DNA of 7,944 nucleotides from a virus (Duplodnaviria > Heunggongvirae > Uroviricota > Caudoviricetes). The translations under genes and the position numbers were made by a program. The first letter of the stretch is position 1, and every line of letters starts with the position of its first letter. The stretch lies in IMG/VR virus record IMGVR_UViG_2703718859_000024. One strand, given 5' to 3'. Shown in pieces: positions 529-7,944 of this stretch. The notes under the pieces are model-generated. The model worked only from the letters and a program-made list of their open reading frames with translations. It had not been told where the DNA came from and did no database searches.

Positions 529-936
529 TTAGTCTTGCGTGATTTTATTGGCGTGCTTCTTTCTCAGGCGTCGTATGATGTCGTAAATATGGGTTTCGGA
601 TATTGCGTACTCTTTGCGTAATGTCTGCAATTTTTCGCCGTTATCCCACCTGTAGTAAATCTCGTATTCGCGCAATGCTGCGAAAAGTGATCTGCCTGTT
701 GGAAGGTAAAGACTTCGCCCACCAGCATAGAAGGCGATTGCAGCGACAACCCGCTTTGCGATTCTGAAAGCGTCTGCCTCCTCCATGCCATTACGGGTAA
801 GCTCCGCTACTGAATGCGACACGATATCAGCAAGCGAATCACACCATGCATCACCTGGTTTATCTCCGTTGTCTATGGCGTCGATGAATTTAAGCCGCTC
901 GATGTCTTTTGGTACGTGATGGGTTTGCTCGTTCAT
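529..936 (-). CDS. Mor/C-family transcriptional activator (Mu middle/late operon regulator family)
   Basis: 135-aa ORF, ATG at 936-934 preceded by AAGAGG, stop TAA at 531-529. The C-terminal half (AFYAGGRSLYLPTGRSLFAALREYEIYYRWDNGEKLQTLRKEYAISETHIYDIIRRLRKK) aligns motif for motif with the Mu Mor region as I recall it (...LGGGQVYIPRGQALDSLIRDLRIWNDFNGRNVSELTTRYGVTFNTVYKAIRRMRR): GG, Y-x-P-x-G, NG, and the terminal IRR-x-R HTH. Confidence 0.65.
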   Translation of the reverse strand: MNEQTHHVPKDIERLKFIDAIDNGDKPGDAWCDSLADIVSHSVAELTRNGMEEADAFRIAKRVVAAIAFYAGGRSLYLPTGRSLFAALREYEIYYRWDNGEKLQTLRKEYAISETHIYDIIRRLRKKHANKITQD

Positions 937-1049: not shown

Positions 1050-1322
1050 TTACTTCTGGTAGCTACGCCAGATTTTTTTACATCTCCCTCCTATCCCCAT
1101 TTCTGCGTATGTGCGGTTTACTGCTTTCCTCAGGTCTGCGTAGTTCTCCTCTGGCGGCTCCGGTGGCCTCTGTGCCTTCCCGTAACACTCTGCCCTGCGC
1201 ATTGCCACCCGTTCGCGTTCCCTGTCTGTCTCCACCAGCATCATCACTTCGGCCCATCGCGCCGCCGTTCTCCGGTAAAAGCCTTTCGACTCCAGTTCTT
1301 CCGCTATGCGGTCATGTACCAT
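1050..1322 (-). CDS. Hypothetical protein, about 90 aa (ORF-track entry 1050..1442 trimmed to the internal ATG)
   Basis: ATG at 1322-1320 preceded by GGGGAG about 5 nt upstream, starting 10 nt after the SSB stop (TGA 1335-1333). Stop TAA at 1052-1050. The longer form would overlap the SSB C-terminus by about 110 nt. No family recognised. Confidence 0.45.
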   Translation of the reverse strand: MVHDRIAEELESKGFYRRTAARWAEVMMLVETDRERERVAMRRAECYGKAQRPPEPPEENYADLRKAVNRTYAEMGIGGRCKKIWRSYQK

Positions 1323-1332
1323 CGTTCTCCCC

Positions 1333-1743
1333 TCAGAACGGAATATCATCACCATAAGGGTCATCGCCTCCCGCTGGTGGCTGATTACCCTGTGTGCCTG
1401 TGGTCCTGCGTCTGCTGCCACCTGGTTGCGCCGTTTTCGCACTGATTACGCTGTCTGCAATAACCTGATAACCCTGCCGCGTTTCCCCGTTCTGTCCGGT
1501 CCACTGGCTGACCTGCATCACGCCGGATACGCTGATTACGTTGCCTTTCTCATGGTGTGCCAGTTGGTCGGCCTGTTTGCCAAATGCCAGGACCGACAGC
1601 CATAACGTCGCCTGCCCGTCCTGCGCCTGACTGCATGGCAGTGATACCGCCATACGCGCCAGCGTCATCGGTGTGCCCTTACTGGTCTGTTTTGTCTGCG
1701 GGTCGTCAATCAGTCGCCCGTAAGCTGCTATCTGTGCTGTCAT
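1333..1743 (-). CDS. ssb: Single-stranded DNA-binding protein (SSB) with conserved acidic C-terminal tip
   Basis: 136-aa ORF, ATG at 1743-1741 preceded by GGAGAGGTGG. The N-terminal ~110 aa fit the SSB OB-fold pattern (AYGRLIDDPQ...LWLSVLAFGKQADQLA...KGNVISVSGVMQVSQWTGQNGETRQGYQVIADSV), followed by a Gly/Pro/Gln-rich linker and a terminal DDIPF identical to the bacterial SSB tail. Confidence 0.85.
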   Translation of the reverse strand: MTAQIAAYGRLIDDPQTKQTSKGTPMTLARMAVSLPCSQAQDGQATLWLSVLAFGKQADQLAHHEKGNVISVSGVMQVSQWTGQNGETRQGYQVIADSVISAKTAQPGGSRRRTTGTQGNQPPAGGDDPYGDDIPF

Positions 1744-1981
1744 GATTCCACCTCTCCGGTTTTAACGTTGATGGTTGTTACCTGTTCCGCTTCTGCAATC
1801 TCCCGCTCTGTCAGCGTGGTAAAGTTTGTCGCTGCTGTGCTCATGAATGCACTTATCAGCCAGGGGGCTTTCGCGTGTCTTTCTGCCGTGTTGTGGCCCT
1901 TCGTTCACGAGCAAAACACTTAAATAAAAATAAAGTGATTTTCTGTGTTTTCGTGCTGCTCTGCTCTGTTTTTTTTTGCCG

Positions 1982-2181
1982 TTTACTCACCACTACTCAC
2001 TTTTTTTACTCACTTTTTGGAATCGCTCACTTCGTCTCACCTGAGATTTTTGGTGTTTTTATGTGTATGTTTTATAAGTGGTTTTTTACTGCTCACTTTT
2101 TTGCCTATATACAGGTGAGAAAGTGAGTAATTTTGTTAATTTTTTGTAAAATTACTCACTTTACTCACTTTTGCTCCTCAC
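1982..2181. repeat. Iteron array flanking an A+T-rich stretch: putative replication origin
   Basis: Nine direct copies of the core CTCAC (mostly as TTACTCACTTT) starting at 1986, 1996, 2009, 2026, 2036, 2092, 2155, 2164 and 2177, plus two inverted copies (GTGAG) at 2115 and 2123. Several are about 10 bp apart. They flank a T-rich segment at about 2041-2090, directly downstream of the replication gene stop at 2186. Confidence 0.55.
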
Positions 2182-2185
2182 TTTT

Positions 2186-3583
2186 TTACAGCGGTACTAC
2201 GTCATCGCCGTCAATGCGTATAGTCTCGTCTTTCTCCAGTTTTGCTAACCATCGCCGCATGTTTTTCACGTCATACCCAAGCCGTTTCATGTCGTCGCGC
2301 AACAACGAAATAGTGCACTTGTCGCCGTGCTGTGTGCGTGACCGGATGCACCCCCATAGCGCGGTATGGTTTTCCGTCTTGTTCCCTGCCTCCTCGATGC
2401 GCTCCTGTTCAACGGGAGGACGCGGCTTATCAACCACCACCAGCGACGTAATTAACTCCCCGTCAGCGTCGGTAAAAAGCTCCACCACGCGTAAGTCATA
2501 TGCTGCTTCTTTGAGTTCCTCCGCGTCCTTCATTTTGGTACATGAGATAACCAGCGCTTCGCTGCCTGCGTCCTCCCTGCGTATCCGGTATTCGGCGTCC
2601 AGTGATGCACGAAATGCACTGGAACCGCGCGCGCCTTTCGTCTCATCCTTGCCGGAATGGTGAACCACCAGCACCGTGGCCCCTGTGCGCCGTTTAAGCT
2701 CGTCACACCCACGGATAAACGCCCCCATATCACGGGAATCATTTTCATCATTGCCGCCAAAGCAACGCGCCAGCGTATCCAGAATAATCATGCGTACAGG
2801 TTTACCCGTTTCCCGCTCCACCTGGCGGGCAGCGATAACCATTTCATCAACATCAAGCGGGACAGCCGGAAAGATGGGACGGTTTACCAGATACAGATTT
2901 TTCACCTGCTCACCGTGCACAACCTCCCAGGCTTTTACACGACGCGGAACGCCGATACCTCCTTCACCAACCACATAGAGAACCGCACCATGCGCCACCC
3001 TGCGGCCTCCCCACTGGCGCCCCGTGGAAACGTGACACGCCCACGAACCCGCAAGGAACGATTTATAGGAACCGCTCGCCCCGTATATGCTGCATAGCGA
3101 CGATGCCGGAATAATCCCCTTTACCACGTAATCAAGTTGTGTATCGTATCCGGCAGAACCAACGCTCATCGGTAGCTTTGTTTTGCGCTGGTGGCCTTTT
3201 TCTTCCTGCTTTTCCCCGCGCTCCCGTTCCAGATATTCGCGCCAGTTCTCCCGCTTCTGGCTGTGCATCCCATCGGGGTAATAATTCGCATCCTGTACAC
3301 CTGCCGCTGCCAGCTTGTGCGCAATGGCATTAATATTTGATGGTCTGATATGGCCTGCCTTGTACAGCCGGACGCAATAGCGGCCCTCGTCGATGATTCT
3401 CATGTCTGTCAGTTCTGCCAGTTGCTGCTCCCCAAGCCATACAGGTGGCACATTATCGCCAGCAAGTCGGCCCTCCTGCTCCTGCCACTGCTTCGCGTGT
3501 GCCCAGGCATCACTACCCGCAAAAATAATGACCTCGGTCATTTTGTCGTAAGGCTGTTTTTTTAAGTTCGGTGCGCTTTTCAT
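2186..3583 (-). CDS. Replication protein: primase/helicase-like with RecA-fold (RepA/DnaB-like, AAA_25-type) ATPase domain
   Basis: 465-aa ORF, ATG at 3583-3581, stop TAA at 2188-2186. Deviant Walker A YGASGSYKS, Walker B-like MIILDTLAR, and VLVVHHSGKD (the hhhHHxGK motif typical of RepA/DnaB-type RecA-fold ATPases). An iteron array lies immediately downstream. The C-terminal ~100 aa could be a DNA-binding domain; that is inference. Confidence 0.8.
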   Translation of the reverse strand: MKSAPNLKKQPYDKMTEVIIFAGSDAWAHAKQWQEQEGRLAGDNVPPVWLGEQQLAELTDMRIIDEGRYCVRLYKAGHIRPSNINAIAHKLAAAGVQDANYYPDGMHSQKRENWREYLERERGEKQEEKGHQRKTKLPMSVGSAGYDTQLDYVVKGIIPASSLCSIYGASGSYKSFLAGSWACHVSTGRQWGGRRVAHGAVLYVVGEGGIGVPRRVKAWEVVHGEQVKNLYLVNRPIFPAVPLDVDEMVIAARQVERETGKPVRMIILDTLARCFGGNDENDSRDMGAFIRGCDELKRRTGATVLVVHHSGKDETKGARGSSAFRASLDAEYRIRREDAGSEALVISCTKMKDAEELKEAAYDLRVVELFTDADGELITSLVVVDKPRPPVEQERIEEAGNKTENHTALWGCIRSRTQHGDKCTISLLRDDMKRLGYDVKNMRRWLAKLEKDETIRIDGDDVVPL

Positions 3584-3879
3584 TTCTTGCCCCTGAATGC
3601 GTTAATCATCTTTTTCATCTTCTGTATTTTTGCCAGTGCCTTTACGTTGCTGGTGGGCACGTTACGCGGTACCGCCTGCACCAGAGAAAAATCACGGGAA
3701 AACTGATAAACAGGCATCACGCAATCATATTCGTAGCCTTTACGGCGGTAGGTGACGCACCGCCCCGCCACGCCCTTAATCATTACCGTGCCGCCGTACT
3801 GGTCGCGGTAAATATCACCGCGCTTAAATTCAGGGCGAGGCTTGCCGCTGGCAGTTAAGCCAGTTTTTTTCATGTTCAT
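3580..3879 (-). CDS. Hypothetical protein, 99 aa, translationally coupled to the replication gene
   Basis: ATG at 3879-3877 with AAGGA about 9 nt upstream. Its stop TGA (3582-3580) overlaps the ATG (3583-3581) of the downstream replication gene in an ATGA arrangement. Basic protein, no family recognised. Confidence 0.5.
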   Translation of the reverse strand: MNMKKTGLTASGKPRPEFKRGDIYRDQYGGTVMIKGVAGRCVTYRRKGYEYDCVMPVYQFSRDFSLVQAVPRNVPTSNVKALAKIQKMKKMINAFRGKK

Positions 3880-3952: not shown

Positions 3953-4267
3953 TCACGAATGGCGATAATCAGTACTGATATCTCCGTTACGGCAACGCCA
4001 GTTGTACACCTCCACAACCTCACTGAATCCGGCCACAAGTTCAGCCGTAACAGCGATGGAATCGCCCAGGCTGCGCAGTTCGTCCATGTCAGGATCAATG
4101 CTGTCACTCATGCCAGAAAGTAAGCGCCCTGTGATAGCCAGCCCTTCAAGCAATTTGCGGGCGTAGAAGTCAGCATCATCAAACATCGCTCTCGCTTCCC
4201 GTGCGTCAGCTGCTTTTATGGTTGTAACCAGTTGTTCAAGTATTCTGGTGTTACACACATCACGCAT
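3953..4267 (-). CDS. Hypothetical protein, about 104 aa (ORF-track entry 3953..4297 begins at TTG; the internal ATG is preferred)
   Basis: ATG at 4267-4265 preceded by GGGGGGA and overlapping the stop of the 154-aa gene by 8 nt, the same geometry as the junction between the two paralogs. Stop TGA at 3955-3953. No recognisable motif. Confidence 0.45.
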   Translation of the reverse strand: MRDVCNTRILEQLVTTIKAADAREARAMFDDADFYARKLLEGLAITGRLLSGMSDSIDPDMDELRSLGDSIAVTAELVAGFSEVVEVYNWRCRNGDISTDYRHS

Positions 4268-4724
4268 GACGTCCCCCCTGACGAATACGGGCGACAAAAA
4301 TCAGATGGGTATGCGGAAGTTGTGCGCGGGTTTCGCGTTCTGTTGCTGCCGTGGCGGTAAAGGGTGAGGCTTGTTTTTCATGGCACTGCATAAAGCGCCA
4401 GACAAAGTAAGGGCGTGCGGATACAGCCATGTGAAAGGCTCCTGTAGTGAAATTAAGGAGTCTCGCTACTACGCTGCTAAACATGGTGGCGAGACGTAAC
4501 GGGGTTAGCAGACTGGCACTACAGGAACCAGCGAGCGCAAAGGCTCCCCCGTTACGCCCCGCCATAATGCGGGTATGGGTAGGTTTACGGACGCAAAAAA
4601 ACCGCATATCGGAATGTAAGCGGCTGTCCGCTGTAGTATTCAGGCTGCTAAACCCGGTCGCCATGTGGGCGACTCCGGCATCATACAGCCCGAAAGAAGA
4701 GGCGATCAACATGTTTTTAAGCAT
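4260..4724 (-). CDS. Hypothetical protein, 154 aa; downstream member (A) of the tandem paralog pair
   Basis: ATG at 4724-4722 preceded by GGGGGTGAG and overlapping the 3' end of the upstream paralog by 8 nt; stop TGA at 4262-4260. C-terminus ...FVWRF...TERETRAQ...IFVARIRQGGRHA parallels ...FIWRF...TEREARNR...VFAARIRQGVSHA of the 181-aa protein. Confidence 0.5.
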   Translation of the reverse strand: MLKNMLIASSFGLYDAGVAHMATGFSSLNTTADSRLHSDMRFFCVRKPTHTRIMAGRNGGAFALAGSCSASLLTPLRLATMFSSVVARLLNFTTGAFHMAVSARPYFVWRFMQCHEKQASPFTATAATERETRAQLPHTHLIFVARIRQGGRHA

Positions 4725-5262
4725 GACTCACCCCCTGACGAATACGGGCAGCGAATACAGCGACACAACCGGACGGGCAACGGTTACGCGCTTCGCGTTC
4801 CGTCCAGGCGGTTACGTGGATAATTTGACGTTCTGACGTGCCAAAGGTGATAAAACGCCAGATAAAGGCAGTCTGAGAATGTACGAGGGCTGGGGTAGTA
4901 GCCATGATGGCAGCCTCCTTTATCGTTGGGATATACCCACCGCTGGAGGTTCCAATCTCGCTGGCGGTGGACTGCACGGAGTTGGAACTACTGGCGATAA
5001 AGGAAACCAGCCTGACCGAAGTCAGCCCCATACAGCCCACCATTGATAAGGTGTGCGTGTGCGCCGATACAAAAAAAGACGCGTTCGGCGTCTGTATCGC
5101 CTTTATCTCCAGCGGGGTTCCAATCCCGACACCCGTTTTATAAGGTGCGCGGGAATCATAGCCATTTTTGATACTGGCGATCAACTGATTTTCTCTGGCG
5201 GGTATTTGGCGCGGATGCCTGTTGCCTGTGACAATATGCACACGACTGTATACAATACACAT
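4717..5262 (-). CDS. Hypothetical protein, 181 aa; upstream member (B) of a tandem paralog pair
   Basis: ATG at 5262-5260 preceded by AAGGAG at about 8-nt spacing; stop TAA at 4719-4717. Homologous over its length to the next gene (shared N[MQ]LIAS, YD, FF, THT, WRF, TERE and C-terminal ARIRQG..HA). The corresponding plus-strand ORF is not preserved in the other copy. Confidence 0.5.
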   Translation of the reverse strand: MCIVYSRVHIVTGNRHPRQIPARENQLIASIKNGYDSRAPYKTGVGIGTPLEIKAIQTPNASFFVSAHTHTLSMVGCMGLTSVRLVSFIASSSNSVQSTASEIGTSSGGYIPTIKEAAIMATTPALVHSQTAFIWRFITFGTSERQIIHVTAWTEREARNRCPSGCVAVFAARIRQGVSHA

Positions 5263-5436: not shown

Positions 5437-5640
5437 TTATTCCTGCTGATAACGCTCCTCTACTTTCTTCTCAAGCCATGATTTCACCTCATCCTCAAAC
5501 CAGCCAACGCGACGCAATCCACGCTTAAAGCCAGGAATAAACTCACCAGCCTTAACCATTGTGTCAATGCTTGTTGTACTAAGGCGAAGAAGATTTGCGA
5601 CTTCTCGTTTTGTAAGGATTTTCTTTTCTGTGATGTTCAT
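5437..5640 (-). CDS. alpA: AlpA-family phage transcriptional regulator / excisionase-like HTH protein
   Basis: 67-aa ORF, ATG at 5640-5638 preceded by AAGGAAAG RBS, stop TAA at 5439-5437. Sequence ...LLRLSTTSIDTMVKAGEFIPGFKRGLRRVGWFEDEVKSWLE matches the AlpA/Xis-type pattern (HTH then conserved VGW...E...WL). Confidence 0.75.
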   Translation of the reverse strand: MNITEKKILTKREVANLLRLSTTSIDTMVKAGEFIPGFKRGLRRVGWFEDEVKSWLEKKVEERYQQE

Positions 5641-6678: not shown

Positions 6679-7944
6679 TTAACCGTTAACCATTTTTAAC
6701 CCACGATAGCCACCTGTGGCGCTTACGCTCCCGCTTGCGGCTGCCTCTACAAAATTCCCCCACCACGCCATTAACGGGCGTCGCTGCTCGAGATAGGTTG
6801 AGCGGTTGTACGCGCGGCGAACCTCGTTTTTGTCTATGTGTGACAATGCCGCCTCGATTACGTCAGAGTCAAAACCTTGCTCGTTAAGTGCGGTACTTGC
6901 TATTGAGCGCAAGCCATGAGCAACCAGCCGCCGACCAAAACCCATGCGTTTTATTGCTGCGTTTGCTGTTTGTGTGCACATAGGGCGCTGCGGGTCGCTG
7001 TTGTGTGGAAATATAAACTCACGATGCCCGCTTATTGGCTTCATGACATCCAGAATGGCTAACGCCTGCTTTGAGAGTGGTATTACGTGTTCCCTGCGTT
7101 GTTTAAGTCTGTGCTCTGGTATGCGCCATTCCTTCGCCTCAAAATCAATCTCACACCAGCGCGCGCCAGCTGCTTCACCTGGTCGGCAAATTGTCAGTAA
7201 CTGCCACTCAATAACCAGCCGCGTTTGTCGTTCCACTCGTGCCGTTGCCAGCTTCTGCATAAAATCGGGGAGTTCTTCAGGGCGTATTGCTGGCATGTTC
7301 TTAGCGCTCGGCGCGTTAAATGCCTTGTTTATCTGTGATGCCGCATTCGCGGTAATCATTCCGGTATTAACGGCGTAATACATGACCTCATTGATTCGCT
7401 GCGCCGTTCTTCTGACGGTATCTAATTTCCCCTGGGCGGCTAATGGTTTTAATGCTTCGATGAAGTTGCTTGCGATCAGGTCTGCTACTGGTCTGTTGCC
7501 GACTGACGGGAATACATTACGCTCCAGCGAGCGCCATGTATCGCGTAGTGTGCCTTCTGCGAGTCCTTGCCCTTTTTTAAGTTCAAACCAAAGCGTAGCT
7601 ACATGCCTGAAGGTGTTCTCTCTCTTCATCACTTCACTAAGGCGCTGTTTCTCTCTGTGCTCTTTTGGGTCAATGCCACCAGAAAGAAGCGCCCTGTATT
7701 CGTCTTTTATCTTTCGCGCGCCCGCAATGCTTATTTCTGGATATGCGCCAATGCTTAACATGGCCCGTTTTTTTGTGTGTGGCTTGTAGTAGCGGTAACG
7801 CCACAAGCAAGAGGCGCTTTTGTGCTTAATCACCAGTTCCAGCCCTTCGCCGTCAGTGATGAAAAGGTCCTTTTTTTCGTTGCTGGCTTTTCGCTGGAGG
7901 CTTTTTATCGCTGCTGGTGATAAGGACTTAGTTTTTTTGGTCAC
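6679..7944 (-). CDS. int: Tyrosine recombinase, P4-family phage integrase; first codon GTG lies on the window edge, so the N-terminus may continue beyond the window
   Basis: 421-aa minus-strand ORF ending in TAA at 6679-6681. C-terminal catalytic region shows box I arginine (ICRPGEAAGARWCEID), box II HGLRSIASTAL...LSH and the tyrosine-bearing RRAYNRSTY. N-terminal region (GEGLELVIKHKSASCLWRYRYY...IGAYPEISIAGARKIKDEY) looks like the arm-binding domain of P4-type integrases. Confidence 0.9.
   Translation of the reverse strand: MTKKTKSLSPAAIKSLQRKASNEKKDLFITDGEGLELVIKHKSASCLWRYRYYKPHTKKRAMLSIGAYPEISIAGARKIKDEYRALLSGGIDPKEHREKQRLSEVMKRENTFRHVATLWFELKKGQGLAEGTLRDTWRSLERNVFPSVGNRPVADLIASNFIEALKPLAAQGKLDTVRRTAQRINEVMYYAVNTGMITANAASQINKAFNAPSAKNMPAIRPEELPDFMQKLATARVERQTRLVIEWQLLTICRPGEAAGARWCEIDFEAKEWRIPEHRLKQRREHVIPLSKQALAILDVMKPISGHREFIFPHNSDPQRPMCTQTANAAIKRMGFGRRLVAHGLRSIASTALNEQGFDSDVIEAALSHIDKNEVRRAYNRSTYLEQRRPLMAWWGNFVEAAASGSVSATGGYRGLKMVNG

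Follow-up and report, generated by a model that had tools for sequence, protein, structure and literature searches.

A probable replication module of a PICI-type phage satellite: a RecA-type Rep protein and the iteron origin that follows its gene

What does a dense cluster of short repeats do when it lies directly behind the gene for a helicase-like protein, and what decides which protein reads which repeat? We addressed these questions for positions 1982 to 3583 of a 7,944-nucleotide (nt) stretch of viral DNA (IMG/VR record IMGVR_UViG_2703718859_000024; the whole stretch is called the window below), where a gene for a 465-amino-acid (aa) protein, here called Rep, is followed by copies of the pentamer CTCAC. 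We conclude that this segment is very probably the replication module of a satellite of the phage-inducible chromosomal island (PICI) type, located at tRNA-Ile in Escherichia coli. The origin arrangement itself has already been published, and the analysis confirms and refines it; what is new is a protein-DNA covariation rule and the RecA-type motor of a widespread PICI Rep allele.

Results

A repeat cluster begins 5 nt past the rep stop codon

CTCAC occurs 19 times in the window when both strands are counted, and 11 of these copies lie within positions 1986-2181. Nine are on the plus strand (at 1986, 1996, 2009, 2026, 2036, 2092, 2155, 2164 and 2177) and two on the minus strand (at 2115 and 2123). 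The core nearest to rep ends at 2181, 5 nt from the stop codon (2186-2188). The longer form CTCACTT occurs eight times in the window, always inside the cluster, and the repeat unit reads AAAGTGAG on the gene strand and CTCACTTT on the plus strand. A first-pass annotation, made from the letters alone, had listed nine direct and two inverted iterons beginning within about 10 nt of the stop codon; its distance, counts and coordinates agree with ours, while the status of one inverted copy changes, as described below.

The composition of the segment (68% A+T, T-rich) raises the question of whether the repeats are a chance cluster in low-complexity DNA. At the rate found outside the cluster, 0.21 copies of CTCAC are expected per 204 nt, which gives a Poisson probability of about 8e-16 for at least 11. 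When the 204-nt segment was shuffled 5000 times with its dinucleotide composition kept, the shuffles averaged 0.37 copies and none exceeded 4, compared with the 11 observed. As the same repeat positions are also kept in relatives, we consider chance to be refuted.

In order from the stop codon on the gene strand, the segment consists of three direct repeats, an AT spacer, an inverted repeat, the element CACCTGTATATA, one direct repeat, about 50 nt of A+T-rich DNA and five direct repeats:

2148-2185, minus strand: proximal iteron set, three direct repeats (CTCAC at 2155, 2164 and 2177)
2128-2152: AT-rich spacer of 25 nt between head-to-head repeats
2120-2134, plus strand: inverted iteron (GTGAG on the plus strand at 2123-2127)
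2106-2119, minus strand: conserved element CACCTGTATATA (gene strand), probably not an iteron, which includes the inverted CTCAC at 2115-2119
2088-2102, minus strand: single direct iteron (CTCAC at 2092-2096), its position conserved in relatives
2041-2091: A+T-rich stretch of about 50 nt between the main repeat sets, T-rich on the plus strand; second candidate unwinding region
1982-2040, minus strand: distal iteron set, five direct repeats (CTCAC at 1986, 1996, 2009, 2026 and 2036)

For comparison, we fetched 80 Enterobacterales loci encoding Rep relatives and added further loci by exact protein look-up. In nearly all relatives, the 300 nt after the rep stop codon hold mostly direct repeats together with one or two inverted ones. 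Over 74 Enterobacterales relatives, the density of a locus's own repeat in these 300 nt is 20 per kb, versus 0.44 per kb over the remainder of the locus. The window has a repeat at each position that carries one in relatives, and at the position of 2120-2134 the relatives carry an inverted repeat of their own class. The element CACCTGTATATA is kept in relatives with other repeat cores (GTGGGG, GTGCGG). Because it is kept whatever the repeat class, the inverted CTCAC at 2115-2119 is probably part of this element and not an iteron of this specificity. By inspection, CACCTGTATATA is not a full LexA box.

Two stretches are candidates for the site of melting. The spacer at 2128-2152 is flanked by a 15-nt perfect inverted repeat (2120-2134/2148-2162), and no duplex of the origin is less stable than the 30-mer at 2125-2154, which ranks third least stable in the whole window (nearest-neighbour energy -29.8, versus a window mean of -41.1, standard deviation 3.7). 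In the second stretch, the 30-mer at 2059-2088 has a nearest-neighbour energy of -31.7, the interval 2040-2099 is 72% A+T and 55% T, and the sequence of 2041-2091 is partly conserved with EcCI042, a named PICI of E. coli 042. On the basis of its lower stability, and by analogy with SaPIs (pathogenicity islands of Staphylococcus aureus), in which repeats of opposite orientation surround an AT-rich melting region, we rank 2128-2152 as the more likely site of the two. The T-rich stretch that the first-pass annotation had proposed for unwinding is as T-rich as it said, but it is not the sole candidate and probably not the better one.

The interval 1900-2249 is free of DnaA boxes, IHF sites, Fis sites and GATC, and the absence of DnaA boxes, IHF sites and GATC fits a self-contained initiator. 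Rfam found no structured RNA in the origin, and the origin DNA matched none of 50,697 phage records. A single terminator-like hairpin was rejected as a terminator, being on the wrong strand and within chance expectation.

The repeats separate rep from the genes that follow it in one co-directional operon, and iteron-binding initiators of plasmids often autoregulate. The repeats might accordingly be mainly operator sites, through which Rep or another island protein controls its own operon or the downstream ssb-perC-mor genes instead of the start of replication. We found no promoter-like site on either strand of 1700-2300, however, and the layout matches that of the working origins of SaPIs and of the PICI EcCICFT073. 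These observations make a mainly regulatory role unlikely, and since such a role could coexist with origin function, it is not a strict alternative to the origin reading.

Rep combines a RecA-type motor with a predicted DNA-binding domain

We next considered the protein encoded directly upstream of the repeats. Its gene and domains are as follows:

2186-3583, minus strand: rep, predicted 465-aa initiator-helicase (stop codon 2186-2188)
3209-3583, minus strand: N-terminal domain, aa 1-125, probably Toprim-like in fold, without a primase signature
2642-3145, minus strand: RecA-type helicase core, aa 147-314, with Walker A GASGSYKS (K174) and Walker B D269
2189-2383, minus strand: predicted C-terminal winged helix, aa 401-465, with a predicted recognition helix at 442-451; N441 covaries with the repeat core

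That Rep is a RecA-fold replication protein, as the first-pass annotation had read it, is confirmed by a match to Pfam AAA_25 over aa 147-314 (E = 2e-43) and by its closest solved motor relative, the RSF1010 RepA helicase (1g8y), which aligns over aa 147-320. Rep also matches PHROG 2850 over its full length, and its RefSeq product name is "helicase RepA family protein." A Foldseek search with the full-length model returned T7 gp4, Rad51 and RadA, a noisy result that confirmed the RecA-type core only. K174 and D269 are invariant in 25 homologues, and rep here is intact with all family-invariant residues. The Walker A motif (aa 168-174, window 3062-3082) reads G-A-S-G-S-Y-K-S, with an invariant aromatic residue where a glycine normally precedes the lysine. 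A homologue from a Vibrio phage, annotated as a DnaB-like helicase, shares this deviation, and the residue is Phe in short forms of the family, while mycobacteriophage and Caulobacter phage relatives have Gly at this position.

The C-terminal residues 401-465 are modelled as helix-helix-helix-strand-strand with a predicted local distance difference test (pLDDT) score of 81-93. In view of this model, they most likely form a winged helix, the predicted reader of the iterons.

The N-terminal domain has no match to Pfam Toprim, zinc-ribbon or Zn_Ribbon_Prim, unlike the long relatives of Rep, and a sequence search against solved structures gave nothing below E = 0.2. We considered whether it might be a diverged form of the Toprim domain of those long relatives, and rejected this since the hhalign alignment was confined to residues 133-466. 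At the positions where primase acidic residues would be expected, Ala22 and Ala76-Gly77 are invariant, as read from the alignment and not from a superposition. Given the missing Pfam matches and the lack of alignment to the primase part, we treated the domain as Toprim-like and probably not a primase. Rep has no recognizable primase domain, and none is encoded in the window.

The Rep family is modular, with long relatives carrying a zinc ribbon and Toprim_3 (Xenorhabdus, Pectobacterium) and short ones lacking the N-terminal domain. The same 125-aa domain heads both RecA-type and superfamily 3 (SF3)-type PICI Reps at 68-80% identity (window 3209-3583; locus L003, 5542-5916; locus L092, 3725-4078). 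A DUF4222 protein is encoded just upstream of each Rep that shares the domain, which suggests a common partner or a docking role.

One residue of Rep covaries with one base of the repeat

The repeats of the relatives have AAGTG in common and then diverge, and we asked whether the divergent part follows the protein. We counted loci with at least three repeats; in 12 others, no class reached three copies. The tripeptide that precedes the recognition helix goes with the repeat core in every case: KN[F/M] with GTGAG (22 of 22 loci), KKF with GTGGGGGA (26 of 26), KHF with GTGGGG (10 of 10) and K[S/G]F with GTGCGGCA (8 of 8). When the class was predicted from the protein alone for four further loci, all four predictions were correct at the key base.

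A near-isogenic pair, P0017 and P0007, narrows the comparison. Their winged helices differ at four positions, Asn/His among them, and their origins align base for base, with every repeat reading GTGAGGA in one and GTGGGGA in the other. Both classes also recur across lineages: Asn in E. coli and Xenorhabdus, and His in E. coli and Salmonella and again, on different C-terminal sequences, in Pantoea, Kluyvera and Kosakonia. A contact between residue 441 and the fourth core base would be expected to give this pattern, and Asn441 most likely reads the A of GTGAG. Such a covariation of a single residue with a single base amounts to a simple rule for matching initiators with origins, which could serve in the design of compatible satellite-based vectors.

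The covariation also bears on a different function for the cluster. Satellites carry packaging sites, which repeats can mark, and the cluster might then be a packaging (cos or pac) or recombination site. Yet it is with a residue of the neighbouring Rep that the repeat core varies, not with one of a terminase or an integrase; the likely integrase arm sites are another repeat, TGTATGCCTTTTT, at the island ends; and no cos-like sequence was found in the window. We regard this explanation as very improbable, more so than a mainly regulatory role.

The module lies in a PICI-type island and shares its layout with known satellite origins

All long open reading frames (ORFs) of the window are on the minus strand. 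Besides rep, they include the following:

6679-7944, minus strand: P4-type integrase (ORF, Pfam), followed by a 298-aa protein that matched no family
5437-5640, minus strand: AlpA (ORF, Pfam)
between the Icd-like module and the DUF4222 gene, minus strand: 114-aa ORF
3580-3879, minus strand: DUF4222 gene (Pfam DUF4222, E = 1.8e-23), its stop codon overlapping the rep start (ATGA)
1740-1865, minus strand: remnant of an 83-aa ORF, a RefSeq pseudogene in a 98.8% identical island
1333-1743, minus strand: island-encoded single-stranded DNA-binding protein (SSB), downstream of the origin (Pfam SSB, E = 1e-15)
1050-1320, minus strand: PerC, after SSB
529-936, minus strand: Mor-family protein (activator), after PerC

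In an E. coli chromosome, the 98.8% identical copy sits between tRNA-Ile (ileX) and nfeF; this tRNA-Ile site is not among the attachment sites in Table S1 of PMC6092414. The island measures about 8 kb and has a single transcription direction (int, alpA, rep, ssb and perC on the minus strand). Its gene order is that of EcCI042 and EcCICFT073, namely int, alpA, Icd-like, DUF4222, rep, a gap of about 200 nt, in some cases the 83-aa ORF, ssb and perC, with ssb in the same position in both. DUF4222 lies upstream of RecA-type and SF3-type Reps alike and is a constant partner of PICI rep genes.

EcCI042 is the closest named relative, and its "Pri-Rep" is one of four alleles listed by Fillol-Salom et al. 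in 2018 (PMC6092414). The two Reps are 92% identical over their full length, the order DUF4222, rep, gap of about 200 nt, 83-aa ORF, ssb and perC is the same, and the CTCACTT core recurs at the same positions. The islands differ in integration site (tRNA-Ile here, tqsA in EcCI042), in the flanks of the repeats (TTACTCAC here, CCCTCAC in EcCI042), in the Mor gene and tRNA-like genes found here versus capsid genes in EcCI042, and in the 83-aa ORF, which is degraded here.

According to the same study, the origin of Gram-negative PICIs directly follows the 3' end of the initiator gene and in every case has two iteron sets around an AT-rich region, and the rep-ori segment of EcCICFT073 maintains a plasmid, with loss of rep or ori abolishing maintenance (PMC6092414). 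In the window, the repeats start 5 nt past the stop codon, and five distal and three proximal repeats surround AT-rich DNA; between the two sets lie two AT-rich stretches and further single repeats. Rep is homologous to the Rep of a named PICI, and the surroundings are those of such islands (integrase, alpA, one direction of transcription, about 8-15 kb, an attachment site of its own). In EcCICFT073, too, the origin comes immediately 3' of rep and has iterons on both sides of AT-rich DNA; DUF4222 is encoded upstream, ssb and perC follow downstream, and the N-terminal 125 aa of its Rep are 68% identical to those of Rep here. The EcCICFT073 motor, in contrast, is an SF3 AAA+ domain (D5_N, DUF5906, Pox_D5), and the repeats of that island are of the GGTAGA type, not CTCAC.

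In SaPIs, Rep is a self-loading helicase and binds, through a C-terminal winged helix, the iterons that lie directly downstream of its gene and surround an AT-rich centre (PMC9371898). The combination of initiator and helicase in one protein, and the AT-rich centre flanked by repeats of opposite orientation, are found here too, and the predicted fold of aa 401-465 together with the covariation of residue 441 points to a C-terminal winged helix that reads iterons. SaPI Reps, however, have SF3 or superfamily 6 (SF6, MCM-like) AAA+ motors with 3'-5' polarity; Rep here is of the RecA type, has no match to D5_N, DUF5906 or MCM, and shows no sequence similarity to SaPI Reps.

The alpha protein of P4 is, similarly, a multifunctional satellite replication protein that binds repeats, and in P4 the alpha gene is directly followed by crr. 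Alpha consists of Zn-ribbon, Toprim, D5_N, SF3 helicase and Pox_D5 domains and is unrelated to Rep (hhalign probability 0.5%), and P4 needs two separated sites, ori and crr. The type 1 repeats annotated in P4 have the sequence TGTTCACC, with variants in crr that differ by a single base; this sequence is absent from the window, and CTCAC is absent from P4 ori and crr. The comparison with EcCI042 in homology, gene order and published layout bears out the satellite origin proposed by the first-pass annotation, as does the P4 comparison its remark that the iteron core is unlike the P4 ori repeat. The different specificity that it suggested holds relative to P4, but this specificity is not unusual, since the GTGAG core is also present in EcCI042 and in Xenorhabdus relatives.

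The closest solved relative of the motor, the hexameric RecA-fold helicase RepA of RSF1010 (IncQ), is also a member of Pfam AAA_25, and the motor of Rep is of this RepA type. In RSF1010, iteron binding (RepC) and priming (RepB') reside on separate proteins; the window encodes no RepC-like or RepB'-like protein, and the DNA-binding domain is fused to the helicase. Proteins of the T7 gp4/Twinkle type have a Toprim-like N-terminal fold ahead of a RecA-type helicase, as Rep appears to have, but the zinc ribbon and Toprim signature of the T7 gp4 type are not detectable in the sequence of Rep, and the predicted origin-binding winged helix is an addition to that type. RSF1010 RepA, DnaB and T7 gp4 all move 5'-3'.

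Rep is proposed to act as a self-loading initiator-helicase

Taken together, these data are consistent with a model in which Rep acts as a self-loading initiator-helicase. The repeats that begin 5 nt past rep's own stop codon would be read by the C-terminal winged helix, with Asn441, the first residue before the recognition helix, reading the A of GTGAG. Bound Rep molecules would assemble on the two repeat sets and the head-to-head pair and open AT-rich DNA, most likely at 2128-2152 and possibly at 2041-2091. The RecA-type motor, similar to those of RSF1010 RepA and T7 gp4, would then be loaded as a ring on single-stranded DNA, with 5'-3' polarity expected as for these two proteins. As Rep lacks a working primase signature, priming would be expected from host DnaG or a helper phage. 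The island SSB would cover the unwound strands, and SSB and the translationally coupled DUF4222 protein, both constant neighbours, are probably accessory factors.

A broader reading joins three elements, a third motor class in the form of a RecA-type ring, a one-residue origin code and an N-terminal docking module; as a whole we hold it tentatively, judging it somewhat less probable than its opposite. In this joint reading, Rep would represent an uncharacterized RecA-type (superfamily 4-like) class of satellite initiator-helicase, expected to move 5'-3', in place of the AAA+ SF3/SF6 motors of SaPI and P4 proteins. The code would pair Asn with A, His or Lys with G, and Ser or Gly with C, and would be reprogrammable by single substitutions. 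The N-terminal domain would serve as a docking site for host primase or the DUF4222 partner.

Several points weigh against the replication-module reading and the model built on it. Shared ancestry inflates the covariation counts; independent support for the covariation comes from the near-isogenic pair and from the Asn and His classes, which recur in distant lineages. Elements residing together in one genome often belong to the same repeat class, and we rejected an interpretation of the classes as incompatibility groups for this reason. The helicase core was modelled with low confidence, and its Walker A motif has Tyr in place of the usual Gly (GSYKS). The published replication test used the EcCICFT073 Rep, which is of the SF3 type and so differs from Rep here (PMC6092414). 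Finally, the island lacks the capsid genes of its relatives, carries pseudogenes next to the origin and may be decaying.

If decay has gone far enough, the origin-like sequence could be a relic in a copy that no longer replicates. The 83-aa ORF beside the origin lacks its start and N-terminal half in an alignment with EcCI042 and locus L093, and its remaining in-frame ORF overlaps the ssb start; an ash-family gene is a second pseudogene. Capsid genes (which relatives do carry), terminase or other packaging genes and a lambda-type cos were not found in the window, and genomes of E. coli O157:H7 hold a partial origin with no annotated RepA. Against this, rep is intact with its family-invariant residues, the repeat positions known from relatives are all occupied, int, alpA and ssb are intact ORFs, and PICIs without packaging genes are reported to be common (PMC11773190). 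We therefore consider a relic improbable, if somewhat less so than a mainly regulatory role for the repeats, and this copy of the replication module may be active.

Distribution and other features of the island

Of 5426 complete E. coli genomes, 1346 contain DNA matching the rep region and 590 contain origin-like DNA. With the module this widespread, its origin and specificity rule could help to annotate satellites that are usually labelled defective prophages. In many E. coli O157:H7 chromosomes (H90-H103), the match covers a partial origin only (query bases 9-153, 77% identity), with no RepA annotated under it, which may represent a decayed copy of the module.

Two further loci, L091 (CP018459.1, 16,971 bp), a circular Klebsiella record, and L092 (NZ_CP148328.1, 10,790 bp), were deposited as circular plasmids and resemble capsid-encoding satellites that have been excised, each with int, alpA, rep and ori. 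L091 carries the same module with this Rep family and AAGTGCGGCA repeats, and L092 has an SF3-type Rep with CTGTTCACC repeats, the core of the P4 type 1 repeat. The circular Klebsiella record is suggestive of, and consistent with, an episomal form of the module.

The tandem repeat TGTATGCCTTTTT is found at both ends of the island in locus L001, outside the window (10020-10050 and 18144-18175). These repeats are probably integrase arm-type sites, and by their positions the island's far end lies about 150 nt outside the window, past its start. Near this end, tRNA-like sequences lie at 41-122 and about 146-240 on the minus strand. Rfam scores the first as tRNA at 35 bits, and RefSeq labels the two as tRNA-Tyr and tRNA-OTHER in the near-identical island; ARAGORN, unlike both, called no tRNA in the window.

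Between the Mor gene and the tRNA-like genes, at 305-395 on the plus strand, is an array of about eight tandem 10-nt units, TTTCAC(C/G)T(G/T)(A/C), with three perfect copies of TTTCACCTTC. The 98.8% identical island has two perfect copies, and the copy number therefore varies. No other fetched locus contains a TTTCAC cluster (at least 4 within 120 nt). We considered the array as a set of integrase arm sites or a second iteron set and rejected both, since the probable arm repeats differ and the array is absent from the other loci.

The Mor-family activator and PerC occupy the place of the capsid genes of the relatives. PerC-like PICI genes have been linked to control of the LEE (locus of enterocyte effacement) virulence island.

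At 4260-5262 on the minus strand, an immunity-type module resembling those of P4 and P1 is duplicated in tandem. Each copy consists of an isrK-like RNA, a C4 antisense RNA and an Icd-like ORF, with the RNAs placed by Rfam as follows:

5072-5148 and 4595-4673, minus strand: isrK-like RNAs
4960-5047 and 4482-4569, minus strand: C4 RNAs

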